From: a virus
Taxonomy: Duplodnaviria > Heunggongvirae > Uroviricota > Caudoviricetes
Reading direction: 5' to 3' (one strand)
DNA: 13,562 nucleotides
Virus record (IMG/VR): IMGVR_UViG_2585427753_000009
Shown here: in pieces, positions 9,651 to 12,646 of the stretch
How the letters are laid out: each line of letters opens with the position of its first letter
Position numbering within the stretch: position 1 is the stretch's first letter
Notes under the pieces: model-generated
What the model saw: the letters and a program-made list of their open reading frames with translations, nothing else
Database searches by the model: none
What the model was told of the DNA's origin: nothing
Program-made: the position numbers and the translations under genes

Positions 9651-9807
9651 AGCTTTAGCCCCTTGTATCCGTTAAATGATTCGGCAACAATCATCACCCA
9701 CCACGCGCGTAATCTCACCCCTGTGCCGTTCTCCCGATCCGGCGACAACAAAAAGCAGTAACCCCCTCCGCACGCACATGCGACCATGCCGCACAGGGAG
9801 GGAACAG

Positions 9808-10917
9808 ATGACCGATACCACCATGCAATTGCTCAGTCAGGGCACAGACCCCGTGAAAATGCCGGATTTTGATATTCTCGCGGAGGGTAAAACGCTGTCA
9901 GGCGTGGCAGAGCGCCTGATGAGCCTGTCACTGACCGACAACCGGGGATTTGACGCGGACCAGCTCACCATCACGCTGGATGATGCGGATTGTCAGTTGC
10001 AGCTACCGCCACGGGGCGCGCGCCTGACGGTTCTCATTGGCTGGAAAGGAGAACCGCTGACAGAAAAAGGCACTTACATTGTTGATGAAATCGCTCACGA
10101 AGGACCGCCGGACAGGCTGACTGTTTCAGCCAGAAGCGCAGATTTTCGGGATGAATTTAACGTTAAACGTGAGGTGTCCTGGCATGATGTGACCGTTGAG
10201 CGTGTGGTATCCGCCATCGCTCATCGGTATGGTCTGAAACCGCAAATCAGCGAAATGCTGATGGATATCGAAATCGACCACGCCGACCAGACCGAAGAAA
10301 GCGACATGTCCTTCCTTACGCGCATGGCGGAAATGCTGGGCGCAATCACCACGGTAAAAAGCGGTAATCTGTTATTCATTATGCCAGGCGGTGGCGTGAA
10401 CGCACAGGGCCAGCCGTTGCCATCGTTCGCCATCACGCGCAGCAGTGGCGATCGCCATCAGTTCCGCATTGCTGACCGCGAAGCGTATACGGGGGTACGC
10501 GCTTACTGGCTTGATCTTAATTACGGGAAAAAGAAAAAAGTCAGCGTGAAACACCGCAAACCGCCAAAACCCAAAAAGGAGAAAAGCAGCAGCCGTGAAG
10601 GTGATTATATGGAAGGCGCGGAAGGCAATGTGTTTGTGTTACGCAAGACTTATCAGAACGAGCAGGCAGCAAGACGCGCAGCGGCGGCAAAGTGGCAGCA
10701 GCTACAACGCGGAGCCGCATCATTCTCCATCACGCTGGCATGTGGTCGTGCAGAACTCTACCCCGAAATGCATGGCACGGTAACAGGATTTAAAAGCGAG
10801 ATTGATAATCAGGACTGGATTATTGCAAAAGCCGAGCACACCATCGATAACAGCGGCTTTACCACGCAGCTTGAGCTTGAGGCAAAAATCTCGGAATGGA
10901 TAGCAGAAACAGAGTGA
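9808..10917 (+). CDS. P2 gpD-like tail protein (late control gene D family)
   Basis: Start at ATG 9808 after AGGGAGG. N-terminus LSLTDNRGFDADQLTITLDD...RGARLTVLIGWKGEPLTEKGTYIVDEI matches the gpD-family pattern; sits immediately upstream of the Ogr-like gene as in P2. Contains an unusual Lys-rich low-complexity insert. Confidence 0.72.
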   Translation: MTDTTMQLLSQGTDPVKMPDFDILAEGKTLSGVAERLMSLSLTDNRGFDADQLTITLDDADCQLQLPPRGARLTVLIGWKGEPLTEKGTYIVDEIAHEGPPDRLTVSARSADFRDEFNVKREVSWHDVTVERVVSAIAHRYGLKPQISEMLMDIEIDHADQTEESDMSFLTRMAEMLGAITTVKSGNLLFIMPGGGVNAQGQPLPSFAITRSSGDRHQFRIADREAYTGVRAYWLDLNYGKKKKVSVKHRKPPKPKKEKSSSREGDYMEGAEGNVFVLRKTYQNEQAARRAAAAKWQQLQRGAASFSITLACGRAELYPEMHGTVTGFKSEIDNQDWIIAKAEHTIDNSGFTTQLELEAKISEWIAETE

Positions 10918-10959: not shown

Positions 10960-11220
10960 ATGTTCCGTTGTCCGCTTTGTGGCGCATCTGCCCGTATCCG
11001 CACCAGTCGTCCGGAAAATGATTCAAACACCGTGCGGCAAAAGTATTACCAGTGTAACAACCTGGAATGCGGCGTATGCTTCTCAACACTGGAAGCTTTC
11101 CATAAATTCACATCAAAACACACCTCCGGCGTTCACTCTTCAGAAGGTATCCCGTGGCATGAGCTGCCAGCTTCACACAGGGGAAACAATCAGATGAGTT
11201 TGCCTTTACCTCAGAATTAA
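10960..11220 (+). CDS. ogr: Ogr/Delta-family zinc-finger late transcription activator
   Basis: MFRCPLCGASARIRTSRPENDSNTVRQKYYQCNNLECGVCFSTLEAFHKF... has the Cys-x2-Cys ... Cys-x4-Cys zinc finger and the MF-CPLC / RTSR / Y-QC-N signature of P2 Ogr. Strong RBS AAGGGAGG. Confidence 0.85.
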   Translation: MFRCPLCGASARIRTSRPENDSNTVRQKYYQCNNLECGVCFSTLEAFHKFTSKHTSGVHSSEGIPWHELPASHRGNNQMSLPLPQN

Positions 11221-11411
11221 CAGGCAGAATTGCCGGAGTAACAAAAAAGCGATAGATTACGCGCGGGTGCCTTTCGGCTGATGGTCGGAGGGAATACCCG
11301 AAGGCCAGATGTGGAAAGGCCCCGGAAAACATTTCTGTTTAACCGAGGCCCTAACATATCTACCTTAAGCAAGTGATAGGTTAGCGCCTCTCCAACAAAG
11401 GAGCAAGCGCT

Positions 11412-11552
11412 ATGTCGCAAAAATCGCTTACGGCCATCACATTCTGCGTGACGGTAATCCTCATCATCTGGATGCTACACGGTTCGCTGTGTGAAATACG
11501 GATGAGCTTCTGGGGAGCGGAGTTTGCGGCGTTCTTACAGTGTAAGCAGTAA
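11412..11552 (+). CDS. Hok-family type I toxin (46 aa); not in the ORF track because it is under 60 aa
   Basis: MSQKSLTAITFCVTVILIIWMLHGSLCEIRMSFWGAEFAAFLQCKQ: N-terminal transmembrane helix, the Hok hallmark S-L-C-E-[IL]-R motif and a conserved C-terminal AAFLxCK, closest to HokA as I recall it. AAGGAG RBS with 8-nt spacing; long structured leader upstream; hairpin and terminator downstream. Confidence 0.7.
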   Translation: MSQKSLTAITFCVTVILIIWMLHGSLCEIRMSFWGAEFAAFLQCKQ

Positions 11553-11640
11553 GGAAACCGCGACGGGGGAGCAATCCCCCGTCAATCGGTTGCTAAGGTT
11601 GGCTGAAGTGGCACCCTATCTCACAGACATGAACAACAAA

Positions 11641-11672
11641 CCCGCAGCGTAAGAACTGCGGGTTTTCTTTTT
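11641..11672. terminator. Intrinsic terminator after the hok-like gene (probably bidirectional, also serving the small minus-strand ORF)
   Basis: CCCGCAG-(8 nt loop)-CTGCGGG followed by TTTTCTTTTT on the + strand; the complement is followed by TTTGTTGTT. A second perfect 9-bp hairpin (GACGGGGGA...TCCCCCGTC) lies at about 11569-11590, reminiscent of the hok mRNA 3' fold-back element. Confidence 0.6.
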
Positions 11673-11740
11673 GGAACTATCACTAGCTAGTGTACCGTTA
11701 ACGGCACATAATGCTCGCACAACAAACCTGTTAAAAGAGA

Positions 11741-12022
11741 TTACTCAGCATTCTCCTGCTTCCATTGCCGGATCATTTCATCGGTAACATCACCCTCATA
11801 ACATACCACGTCATACCCTCCATTACGGCTATATGCACTGCGTCCACCACATCTACTACCATTCCTTGCATGATTATAAGGACACGCACAATTGCCTGGA
11901 TAAGATTCAATGGATTCTTTAATTATTTCTTTTTTGATCTGAGCATCAGACTTTCCTGTTGCTGCATATCCGCTAAAAGATACTAAACAAAGGCAGATTG
12001 CCATTAATAAACCACATCGCAT
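11741..12022 (-). CDS. Small secreted Cys-rich protein of unknown function (about 93 aa with signal peptide)
   Basis: From the internal ATG (12022): MRCGLLMAICLCLVSFSGYA|ATGKSDAQIKK... has a canonical signal peptide and four Cys in the mature part. AT-rich. The 131-aa ORF-track version has a non-credible N-terminal extension; exact start is uncertain because the RBS is weak. Confidence 0.5.
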   Translation of the reverse strand: MRCGLLMAICLCLVSFSGYAATGKSDAQIKKEIIKESIESYPGNCACPYNHARNGSRCGGRSAYSRNGGYDVVCYEGDVTDEMIRQWKQENAE

Positions 12023-12259
12023 ACCGATACACTCTATTACTAACCAATCATAGCCCACATCATAAAATCGAGATGAGGAGTACAATACCTTTAACAAGAA
12101 GGTGTCATAACGATAATATGTCGTGCAATTCATCAAAAAAAAGATCTATATCAAAGAGATAGAACTCTTATCAGTGCTTCAGACATCGGCATTCGAGGCA
12201 GCAGAAAAACAGTAAATCTGACGAATTTGCCTTTTCCCAAGATGTTGTCAGATTAAAAA

Positions 12260-12420
12260 GATAGATTAGCGCAGGTACCTGTTGGTGGATTGCAGGAGGA
12301 AAAATGAAGTCGAGTGGAAAAATCCCAGAAAAATTTTTGTTTAACAGAGGTCCTGGTTCACTATGCGAAATACGGAGGAGCTGCAGAAGAATTCTGCTTC
12401 ATCCTTAGAGTTTAAACAGC
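12260..12420 (+). pseudogene. Degraded second hok-like locus (leader retained, toxin ORF internally deleted and frameshifted)
   Basis: 12260-12357 aligns by eye with the leader of the intact locus (11251-11348), e.g. GATAGATTA..., GGAAA..CC..GAAAA..TTT.TGTTTAAC.GAGG.CC. 12358-12378 GGTTCACTATGCGAAATACGG then matches the toxin's GGTTCGCTGTGTGAAATACGG (codons for GSLCEIR), but the RBS, start codon and transmembrane-helix codons are missing and the remainder is out of frame. Confidence 0.45.
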
Positions 12421-12492
12421 ACGTGCACTACCATTGTTTCTGCATATCGCCACACCATCGCCACTCAACCGCCATTGCACAAAATACAAATA

Positions 12493-12519
12493 CAAAAAAA
12501 CCACCCGAAGGTGGTTTCA
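12493..12519 (-). terminator. Intrinsic terminator of the glyW-cysT-leuZ tRNA operon
   Basis: Minus-strand AAACCACC-TTCG-GGTGGTTT followed by TTTTTTTG, about 40 nt past the tRNA-Leu 3' end. Confidence 0.7.
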
Positions 12520-12559
12520 CGACACTGCTTATTGCTTTGATTTTATTCTTATCTTTCCC

Positions 12560-12646
12560 ATGGTACCCGGAGCGGGACTTGAACCCGCACAGCGCGAACG
12601 CCGAGGGATTTTAAATCCCTTGTGTCTACCGATTCCACCATCCGGG
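12560..12646 (-). tRNA. leuZ: tRNA-Leu (anticodon UAA)
   Basis: Reverse complement reads GCCCGGATGGTGGAATCGGTAGACACAAGGGATTTAAAATCCC...GGGTTCAAGTCCCGCTCCGGGTACCA: 87 nt, long variable arm, encoded CCA. Confidence 0.93.

Follow-up and report, generated by a model that had tools for sequence, protein, structure and literature searches.

Near the right end of an Escherichia coli prophage of the P88-like (P2) family, just downstream of ogr, lies a hok/sok-type type I toxin-antitoxin module that is an accessory gene (moron) of the prophage; judged by sequence, mok is absent from this copy and from all relatives examined. The module was studied in a 13,562-nt stretch of DNA (IMG/VR record IMGVR_UViG_2585427753_000009), hereafter the window. 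We consider it very probable that the locus is intact and works by the mechanism proposed below, the two taken together as one explanation. As a toxin-antitoxin locus it is ordinary and already known, apart from a single regulatory difference of modest interest.

The toxin gene is recognizable as a member of the Hok family. On the plus strand, 11412-11552 reads from an ATG start as a 46-aa peptide (MSQKSLTAITFCVTVILIIWMLHGSLCEIRMSFWGAEFAAFLQCKQ), the ORF that an earlier note on this DNA had singled out. The single transmembrane helix that the note described, read directly from the sequence, corresponds to a hydrophobic stretch of 17 residues (L6-L22), and the motifs SLCEIR and AAFLQCK are both in the peptide. 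Pfam PF01848 (HOK_GEF) matches at 30.1 bits (E 3.7e-7; gathering score 22), with residues 7-44 aligned to profile positions 5-42 of 42, and the family-conserved residues are all present with the same spacings (M1, C12, T14, L26, C27, E28, E37 and C44), the published Hok logo having M1, C16, T18, L30, C31, E32, E41 and Cys or Tyr at 48 (bioRxiv 10.1101/2025.08.07.668861). Together with the helix that closes the 5' region of the mRNA onto its 3' region (see below), this match and these residues uphold the identification of a hok-like type I toxin locus. The nearest K-12 paralog and best NCBIfam match is HokA (43% identity over 40 residues), whose locus differs in having a mokA remnant annotated as a pseudogene and IS150 immediately beside it; the score on the HokA equivalog model NF007290 (35.8 bits) lies far below its cutoff of 89, so the peptide is a Hok-family protein and not a HokA ortholog. 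The Hok subfamily model NF007279 gave 23.6 bits against a cutoff of 73. PADLOC-DB 2.0 matched neither Hok nor the alternative-frame translations; as it missed the positive controls MokW and MokC too, it holds no such model and is uninformative here.

The same gene has been catalogued repeatedly, contrary to the novelty that the note had implied. RefSeq WP_000078920.1 is the identical protein, annotated 'Hok/Gef family protein'; phage P88 carries the gene as gp52; PHROGs assigns it to phrog_251, 'MokW-like host killing' (E 2.5e-23); and it belongs to Hok cluster 72 (Escalera-Maurer et al.), whose representative 72_1621 differs by one residue (V16A). That variant was one of the peptides tested and is counted among the toxic ones, the three peptides named as non-toxic being from other clusters (bioRxiv 10.1101/2025.08.07.668861). 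Cluster 72, phrog_251 and the RefSeq entry describe the same lineage and cover the peptide only; the preprint listing cluster 72 (2026) states that Mok and Sok were left out of its analysis (bioRxiv 10.1101/2025.08.07.668861). The gene is indeed missing from the ORF track, as the note remarked, but through a length cutoff only, and PGAP annotates the exact coding sequence in RefSeq. With the toxin annotated in hundreds of genomes and a near-identical peptide reported toxic, finding the gene adds little.

Codon-level comparison indicates purifying selection on the peptide, and this holds among E. coli, Salmonella, Klebsiella and Citrobacter copies whose identity has fallen to 61-70%. The pN/pS ratio was 0.18 overall and 0.35-0.40 against distant copies, the estimate from the viral set being biased downward because that set was picked by protein identity. 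Intact 46-aa forms predominate among the copies, and some are truncated or read through the stop. The longer calls, of 59-81 aa, were considered as in-frame Mok-like extensions and rejected, all being C-terminal read-throughs. A short ORF in a GC-rich and highly structured region could in principle arise by chance, for instance in a phage terminator or attachment site with no toxin-antitoxin function, but this explanation is effectively refuted by the Pfam score above threshold, the 68 homologous protein clusters that are all named Hok/Gef, the codon-level selection, the match of the leader to the hok/sok covariance model (E 1.4e-9) and the reported toxicity of the one-residue variant.

The locus is widespread and its position is stable. 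A match was found in 1633 of 5426 complete E. coli genomes (~30%) and on 311 IMG/VR contigs, and the lineage extends beyond E. coli to Salmonella, Klebsiella and Citrobacter. Among the loci compared, ogr is directly upstream of hok in 82 of 87. The prophage has its insertion site next to the E. coli tRNA operon glyW-cysT-leuZ, and the three tRNAs are the sole Rfam matches at gathering thresholds. The note had placed the module immediately after ogr, between the phage tail genes and the tRNA operon; it does adjoin ogr, but a minus-strand phage ORF (11741-12136) sits between hok and the tRNAs. In the alignment of relatives the conserved module ends at ~11622, just past the fbi element, and is followed by a two-way intrinsic terminator (11638-11674), common to hok and the convergent ORF: a hairpin at 11638-11665 and a T-run to ~11674, terminator-like on both strands, which bears out the strong terminator that the note had seen at 11641-11672. 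Most ogr-linked copies have a terminator hairpin of the same family with compensating changes, and copies in other contexts have a different terminator. No variant is commoner among the 49 distinct relatives than the one in the window, and with both promoters conserved as well the locus looks intact.

The promoters of hok and sok were placed by homology, a simple sigma-70 consensus scan of 11150-11750 having found no promoter; both are weak by consensus. The predicted hok promoter (11230-11258, plus strand) consists of a -35 TTGCCG (11230-35), a 17-nt spacer and a -10 TAGATT (11253-58), and shares the geometry of K-12 hokC, in which the -10 hexamer is followed by 6 nt and then GGGTGC. Among relatives the TTG of the -35 and the TA...T of the -10 are constant and the spacer varies. 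The +1 is put at G11265, to which position 1 of the Rfam hok/sok model RF01794 aligns, giving a predicted leader of ~147 nt in place of the roughly 190 nt estimated before. The full-length mRNA would thus run over 11265-11672 (~408 nt, plus strand), beginning GGGUGCC. Folded as a 412-nt transcript, it has a minimum free energy of -175.3 kcal/mol (z = -7.1 against shuffles).

The Rfam search that the note had proposed for hok and sok RNA did yield RF01794 (hok strand, 11265-11422, model positions 1-157, its full length; E 1.4e-9), but only in a permissive search, at 47.9 bits against a gathering threshold of 59. The range is 31-54 bits for relatives in the lineage, against 110-118 bits for hokB, hokC and hokW. 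The low score reflects an inner 5' hairpin that differs from that of R1; because the whole lineage falls below the Rfam threshold, Sok and the other RNA elements go without genome annotation, and in RefSeq the matched region carries no feature for a Sok RNA.

The elements that lock and protect hok mRNA in R1 are recognizable in the predicted transcript. Its 5' end forms a tac element (11265-11279; GGGUGCCUUUCGGCU) that pairs, in the minimum free energy fold, with an fbi element (11601-11616; GGCUGAAGUGGCACCC). The GUGCC/GGCAC core of this pairing is kept in the RNAalifold consensus, and closure was obtained in all 48 of the 48 variants folded individually; two fbi flank types occur among relatives, both closing onto an invariant tac. 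In the fold of the nascent RNA, tac pairs instead with 11313-11323 (GGAAAGGCCCC), a box able to base-pair with tac as well as with the GAGG region, which we call ucb-like by analogy to R1 (PMC9841398). It corresponds to stem 1 of the Rfam model, and RNAalifold pairs its GGCC/CG with 11343-11349. Just past the hok stop codon is a stem-loop (11555-11591, core 11562-11583) with the perfect 9-bp stem that the note had pointed out (11562-11570 with 11575-11583) and a GCAA loop. Two pairs in it covary (G-C in 36 and A-U in 12; A-U in 39, G-C in 8 and C-G in 1). We predict it to be the protective end of a 3'-trimmed, active mRNA, as its R1 counterpart shields trimmed hok mRNA against 3' exonucleases (PMC9841398).

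A Sok RNA is predicted on the opposite strand, transcribed from a minus-strand promoter that overlaps the hok ribosome-binding site (11378-11406; -35 TTGCTC, reverse complement of 11401-06; 17-nt spacer; -10 TAACCT, reverse complement of 11378-83). The hexamers match consensus at 3/6 positions each and fall in invariant alignment blocks. The promoter agrees with that of sokW from prophage Sp5 in its -10 hexamer, its spacing and its overlap with the hok ribosome-binding site, and a -10 mutant of sokW loses antitoxin activity (PMC8621323). The predicted RNA (~11370-11308, ~63 nt) would comprise a 5' single-stranded tail, a GC-rich hairpin and a UUUCC tail; it folds at -27.6 kcal/mol (z = -4.7), and annotated sokB and sokC occupy a corresponding place, 48-107 nt upstream of hok. 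The tail-plus-hairpin form recurs in all 25 distinct variants, with compensating changes in the upper stem; since one stretch of DNA encodes both the Sok hairpin and the sense hairpin, covariation in it does not reveal on which strand selection acts. The note had been able to place neither Sok nor mok. Sok can thus be given a position, whereas its reader could not place mok because mok does not exist here.

The ribosome-binding site of hok is good, as the note had stated (AAGGAG at 11398-11403, 8 nt before the ATG), and is predicted to be buried. A hairpin at 11382-11412 (UAGCGC/GCGCUA) pairs CUCC (11390-93) with GGAG (11400-03); it is paired in RNAalifold, shows G-U to G-C changes among relatives and has an energy of -13 to -17 kcal/mol in 10 of 11 variants. 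For full-length and trimmed mRNA alike, GGAG has a predicted probability of 0.00 of being unpaired. In thermodynamic accessibility calculations 3' trimming opens neither this site nor the upstream GAGG, and folding by itself therefore fails to account for activation.

Where mok would begin, only a vestigial initiation region is found (11345-11376, plus strand): GAGG at 11345-48, 7 nt, then ATA at 11356-58 and an in-frame TGA at 11374-76. The positive controls hokC, hokB and hokW have an ATG at this codon, exactly 7 nt after GAGG and 57-58 nt before hok. The window has no mok frame, all three frames being closed between 11352 and 11384. None of 11 divergent relatives has a mok start codon at the homologous position, and the codon after GAGG varies among relatives (ATA, CGA, TTT, CAC, CGT, CTT and CAT), although the GAGG itself, at -66/-67, is invariant. 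No leader ORF reaches hok in 31 of 49 variants and those in the rest are not conserved; 1-nt indels among relatives shift the leader frame, and the leader fusions of 61-87 codons in some variants are the product of a 1-nt indel. A 31-aa ORF (11281-11376) was rejected as mok, as it ends 36 nt before hok and its ATG is absent in two relatives (L011 and L012).

This absence bears directly on whether Hok is made. In R1, mok translation is mandatory up to the hok ribosome-binding site and not needed further, and all four recovered substitutions of the mok start codon abolish toxicity (PMC9841398). Given that effect, and with the hok ribosome-binding site predicted fully paired here, the translation route in our proposed mechanism is assumed. 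The R1 requirement, the ATA codon, the closure of every frame ahead of the hok ribosome-binding site and the pairing of that site would all suit a silent relic, which lost its mok start, makes no Hok from its native mRNA and is merely carried along with ogr and the prophage, or whose DNA serves another purpose. We regard this as quite improbable: a dead coding sequence should carry frameshifts and stops, yet intact 46-aa forms dominate, the peptide is under purifying selection among copies diverged to 61-70% identity, and the lineage has kept both promoters, tac, fbi, the hairpin over the ribosome-binding site and the 3' stem-loop, in part with compensating changes.

Hok might also be coupled to a cryptic substitute for mok, initiated at AUA 11356 or AUC 11358, 7-9 nt after the invariant GAGG, or at a mini-ORF (GUG 11373-AUA-GGU-UAG 11382). 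The frame-0 stretch 11355-11384 ends exactly at the base of the hairpin over the ribosome-binding site; with the mini-ORF stop at the foot of that hairpin, a terminating ribosome would melt it, and R1 mok needs translation only that far (PMC9841398). In the Citrobacter copy (L012), moreover, an upstream ORF ends in TGATG on the hok start. We nevertheless think such coupling unlikely, for the codon after GAGG differs among relatives, the 1-nt indels shift the frame, and the conservation of GAGG is explained by its place in a hairpin stem on both strands. The mini-ORF was rejected as a conserved element; its GUG is missing in two relatives (L009 and L003), and it has no ribosome-binding site.

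Under the reading that we favour, an intact module, the weak constitutive promoter would yield a stable hok mRNA of ~408 nt, in which pairing of the first 15 nt (tac) with fbi, just before the terminator, would keep the RNA locked while the hok ribosome-binding site is held in its local hairpin. Slow trimming from the 3' end to the stem-loop at 11555-11591 would remove fbi and let the 5' region refold, by analogy with plasmid R1. Sok, short and unstable, would pair with the leader at 11308-11370 and bring about destruction of the mRNA; should the supply of Sok stop, the 46-aa Hok would be made, enter the inner membrane and kill or lyse the cell. Sok cannot work by blocking mok translation in a lineage that has no mok leader frame, and may act instead through duplex-triggered decay, by covering the conserved GAGG where ribosomes would land, or both.

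It is plausible, at a little below an even chance, that the cluster 72 prophage lineage has dispensed with mok while keeping every other hok/sok RNA element and that, if Hok is made natively, Sok controls it by a route other than mok. In the type I system tisB/istR-1 the toxin ribosome-binding site is structurally buried, and the antisense RNA, binding far upstream of it, denies ribosomes their standby site. Standby-site control of this kind is one way in which a mok-less hok might work, proposed as a functional analogy between systems with no sequence or structural homology.

Compared with R1 hok/sok, the paradigm type I system, the locus has a similar small single-helix membrane toxin with an L-C-E core and a C-terminal cysteine, a similar predicted stable mRNA of ~400 nt locked by tac/fbi pairing, with a sequestered hok ribosome-binding site and a protective 3' stem-loop, a similar predicted cis-antisense Sok of ~60 nt whose promoter would lie over the hok ribosome-binding site, and a GAGG ~66 nt upstream of hok. 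Unlike R1, it has no mok frame, with ATA in place of the mok ATG and all frames closed, and its peptide is prophage-borne rather than plasmid-borne and has 46 aa instead of 52, with a shorter N-terminus. It also resembles hokW-sokW of the Stx2 prophage Sp5 (E. coli O157:H7 Sakai), likewise prophage-borne, to whose Sok promoter the one predicted here is identical in its -10 (TAACCT) and its 17-nt spacing; hokW-sokW has been shown to function as a toxin-antitoxin pair and to promote lysis and phage release after mitomycin C (PMC8621323). HokW, however, has 51 aa and is 26% identical to Hok here, and its gene has a 70-codon mokW with an ATG at -57, a leader that scores 113.5 bits on RF01794 and a lambdoid phage as carrier. 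A comparison of the Stx-phage copy of the present lineage (L003) with hokW (L095), as a test for the same phage site, found no flank similarity, the flanks being unrelated.

The likeliest role of the module, by analogy to other hok/sok loci, would be prophage retention, or aid to lysis or exclusion; the roles put forward in the note, stabilising the island or excluding phages, are guesses. The working map of the locus is now full, comprising both promoters, tac, fbi, Sok, the hairpin over the ribosome-binding site and the 3' stem-loop, and the fixed place of the module beside ogr in P2-like prophages makes it a convenient system for the role of hok/sok in temperate phages, in retention, phage exclusion or lysis. 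Set against the R1 requirement, the lineage-wide absence of mok offers a natural test of what unlocks hok translation and of the way in which Sok represses it. If our reading of cluster 72 is true, the family as a whole would not be bound by the R1 requirement for mok translation.

The window encodes a Hok-type toxin exactly where the earlier note had placed it: a 46-aa ORF at 11412-11552 on the plus strand, with an ATG start, the peptide MSQKSLTAITFCVTVILIIWMLHGSLCEIRMSFWGAEFAAFLQCKQ and, as claimed, a good ribosome-binding site (AAGGAG, 11398-11403) 8 nt ahead of the ATG. Its hok-like character was borne out by Pfam HOK_GEF (30.1 bits; gathering score, 22), and the peptide carries all seven residues conserved in the Hok family (residue list from bioRxiv 10.1101/2025.08.07.668861). 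The ORF is indeed absent from the ORF track, for the sole reason of a length cutoff. Judged from sequence comparison, the peptide is under purifying selection in this lineage, with a pN/pS of 0.18 across all pairs, a value pulled down by the selection of the viral set on protein identity, and of 0.35-0.40 against the most distant copies. Given the Pfam score and the transcript fold relative to shuffles, none of the ORF, the hairpins and the fold is a product of chance.

The toxin gene is already a known, routinely annotated Hok-family member, as follows from RefSeq, phage, protein-family and preprint records. A 601-base stretch around the locus occurs unchanged (100% identity) in several Escherichia coli chromosomes and has matches in 1,633 of 5,426 complete E. 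coli genomes, at up to seven places per genome. In E. coli 55989, the Hok/Gef gene (WP_000078920.1) comes after the tail sheath gene, a VgrG/Pvc8-family gene (contractile injection system) and ogr, in that order, and is followed by a gene for a hypothetical protein, tRNA-Leu/Cys/Gly, pgsA and uvrC. Phage P88 (Peduoviridae, Xuanwuvirus) carries this gene as gp52, under the name 'MokW-like host killing', and the window hok falls in phrog_251 (category moron). A protein search with the peptide returned 68 clusters from E. coli, Shigella, Salmonella and Klebsiella, every one named Hok/Gef, and 311 IMG/VR contigs encode a relative. The lineage is the high-abundance cluster 72 of a 2026 Hok peptide catalogue, in which three of the 45 homologs assayed were non-toxic, all outside cluster 72 (bioRxiv 10.1101/2025.08.07.668861); its representative 72_1621 differs from the window peptide at one residue. 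Of 87 related loci, 82 have ogr as the immediate upstream neighbour, an arrangement found also in Salmonella P2-like prophages; in this phage group the module is thus a fixed accessory gene. The placement proposed earlier, after ogr and ahead of the tRNAs, is right, except that hok is not the final phage gene before the tRNAs.

Several features of the surroundings were recorded. Upstream of ogr, a 413-aa ORF (9676-10917) occupies the gpD position among the phage late genes; its long N-terminal extension, from a mechanical ORF list, may not be real, because the E. coli 55989 counterpart is a shorter, 801-nt 'VgrG/Pvc8 family' CDS with a small pseudogene fragment ahead. Downstream, 11673-12491 (~820 bp) is DNA of neither P88 nor K-12. 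It includes a minus-strand ORF (11741-12136), convergent with hok and sharing with it a two-way terminator (11638-11672), whose Cys-rich product has a signal-like N-terminus, no Pfam family and a C-terminal 81 aa matching phrog_27544 (unknown function; E = 1.5e-57); RefSeq has a shorter hypothetical protein (282 nt) at this site. In the last segment (12492-12563), homology to E. coli K-12 returns at 12492, a position equivalent to the 3' terminus of the small RNA 3'ETS-leuZ. The prophage and its cargo are therefore inserted directly downstream of the terminator of the leuZ operon, on the K-12 yecA side. Elsewhere, Salmonella enterica contig L102 carries a tandem duplication of the module (Hok/Gef genes at 451-591 and 955-1041, same strand, ~360 nt apart), and a Salmonella diarizonae locus (L011) strongly matches the enterobacterial sRNA STnc540 (RF02082, 185.7 bits) at 1009-1195 on the minus strand, some 170 nt past the hok stop codon and some 300 nt from the hok start codon.

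We mapped the RNA elements on an alignment of 49 distinct full-length relatives, using as controls K-12 hokC and hokB, with annotated mok (the leader frame coupled to hok in plasmid R1) and sok, and the experimentally validated hokW-sokW of the Stx2 prophage Sp5. The conserved block runs from ~11228 to ~11622, and the terminator beyond depends on context. The predicted hok promoter (-35 TTGCCG, 11230-11235; 17 nt; -10 TAGATT, 11253-11258; plus strand) has the geometry of K-12 hokC, its TTG and TA...T being constant among relatives and its spacer variable. Six nucleotides separate it from GGGTGCC at 11265, which gives a leader of ~147 nt instead of the ~190 nt first estimated. The predicted transcript (412 nt) has a fold 7 standard deviations better than that of shuffled sequences. 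The first 15 nt of the transcript (the 5' element tac) pair with fbi, the 3' partner at 11601-11616, in the minimum free energy fold, the RNAalifold consensus and all 48 variants folded singly; closure holds despite two types of fbi flank, GAAGUGGCACCC and GAUAAGGCACCC, with the 5' tac invariant. In about 20 IMG/VR loci besides L017, L022 and L025, predicted prophage contigs stop exactly 3 nt past the hok stop codon, so that gene-based boundary trimming removes fbi and the terminator.

In nascent RNA, tac would pair instead with a box at 11313-11323 (GGAAAGGCCCC), for which modelling also predicts alternative pairing with the GAGG region (11343-11349), as expected of the ucb-type 5' box of R1. 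A hairpin at 11382-11412, retained in 10 of 11 sequence variants (-13 to -17 kcal/mol), buries the GGAG (11400-11403) of the hok ribosome-binding site. The perfect 9-bp stem reported after the stop codon (11562-11570/11575-11583, GCAA loop) was recovered as the core of a longer 3' stem-loop (11555-11591) with covariation at two pairs (G-C in 36 sequences and A-U in 12; A-U in 39 and G-C in 8); the R1 equivalent shields processed, active mRNA from exonucleases (PMC9841398). The terminator also held up: both strands show a terminator-like hairpin (11638-11665) and a T-run.

The earlier note could place neither the antisense antidote Sok nor mok; Sok can now be placed, as a prediction from homology, and mok is absent from the window. 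The putative minus-strand Sok promoter (-35 TTGCTC, reverse complement of 11401-11406; 17 nt; -10 TAACCT, reverse complement of 11378-11383) lies in invariant alignment blocks and shares with the sokW promoter of Sp5 its -10 hexamer, spacing and overlap with the hok ribosome-binding site; mutation of the sokW -10 region abolishes antitoxin activity (PMC8621323). Both hexamers are weak by consensus, and a simple promoter scan flagged neither. The predicted RNA (63-67 nt) would run from near 11370 to near 11308, in agreement with annotated sokB and sokC, 48 to 107 nt upstream of hok starts. It folds into a 9-13-nt single-stranded 5' tail and a GC-rich hairpin (-27.6 kcal/mol, z = -4.7) followed by a UUUCC tail, a form kept in all 25 distinct variants. 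In five of them (L009, L079, L083, L003 and L012), compensating changes reshape the upper stem, a covariation that does not prove which strand is selected, because the same DNA forms a sense RNA hairpin. The Sok 5' tail and its target (11355-11372) vary more than any other stretch of the otherwise conserved module, the relatives having at least seven different tails; this may reflect specificity diversification that avoids cross-talk between copies, of which E. coli genomes hold up to seven.

No leader ORF from ATG, GTG or TTG reaches the hok start in the window, and all three leader frames meet stops between 11352 and 11384. The scan was validated by hokC, hokB and hokW, in which an ATG lies 57-58 nt upstream of hok and exactly 7 nt past GAGG; the window equivalent is GAGG (11345-11348), 7 nt and ATA (11356-11358), with a stop six codons on. 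A leader ORF reaching hok is absent in 31 of 49 variants, and those in the others are non-conserved products of a 1-nt indel. In Salmonella, Klebsiella, Citrobacter, Escherichia albertii and Stx-phage copies the mok-start codon is CGA, TTT, CAC, CGT, CTT or CAT, with tac, fbi, GAGG, the Sok -10 and the hok ribosome-binding site in place. On these comparisons, the lack of mok characterizes the lineage as a whole and does not reflect damage to the window copy; we did not find this state of an abundant Hok lineage described in the literature searched. Longer database protein calls, considered as N-terminal (Mok-like) extensions, were all C-terminal read-throughs. In the distant relative from Citrobacter braakii (L012), a 34-codon GTG-initiated ORF starts 104 nt upstream and its TGA overlaps the hok ATG (TGATG), which may be a termination-reinitiation arrangement, not present in E. 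coli copies. The Rfam hok/sok model suggested as a check (RF01794) does match the window leader, below its gathering score of 59; hokB, hokC and hokW score 110-118 bits and every lineage member 31-54 bits, values that fit a divergent leader and probably account for the lack of a Sok RNA feature in RefSeq at this site.

We consider it very likely that the locus is a hok/sok system. In R1, mok start mutants lose toxicity, and mok translation is required up to the hok ribosome-binding site (PMC9841398), a site that in the window is predicted to be fully paired in full-length and trimmed RNA alike. It could accordingly be asked whether hok is a silent relic, not translated from its native locus, which we judge improbable; within the hok/sok reading we favour, with reasonable though lesser confidence, a working module independent of mok. 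The hok ribosome-binding site might be opened by ribosome standby or sliding from the GAGG region, by non-canonical initiation at AUA or AUC, by a non-conserved mini-ORF (GUG 11373 to UAG 11382) or by direct entry upon hairpin breathing. Published roles of hok/sok include T4 exclusion (cited in PMC8621323) and plasmid maintenance; hokW-sokW aids lysis and phage release after induction (PMC8621323), and hok is enriched in prophages, not near defence systems (bioRxiv 10.1101/2025.08.07.668861). What is added here is a complete RNA map of the locus and the finding of an abundant lineage that lacks mok; mok-independent function, if borne out by experiment, would revise the hok/sok paradigm in a modest but real way.
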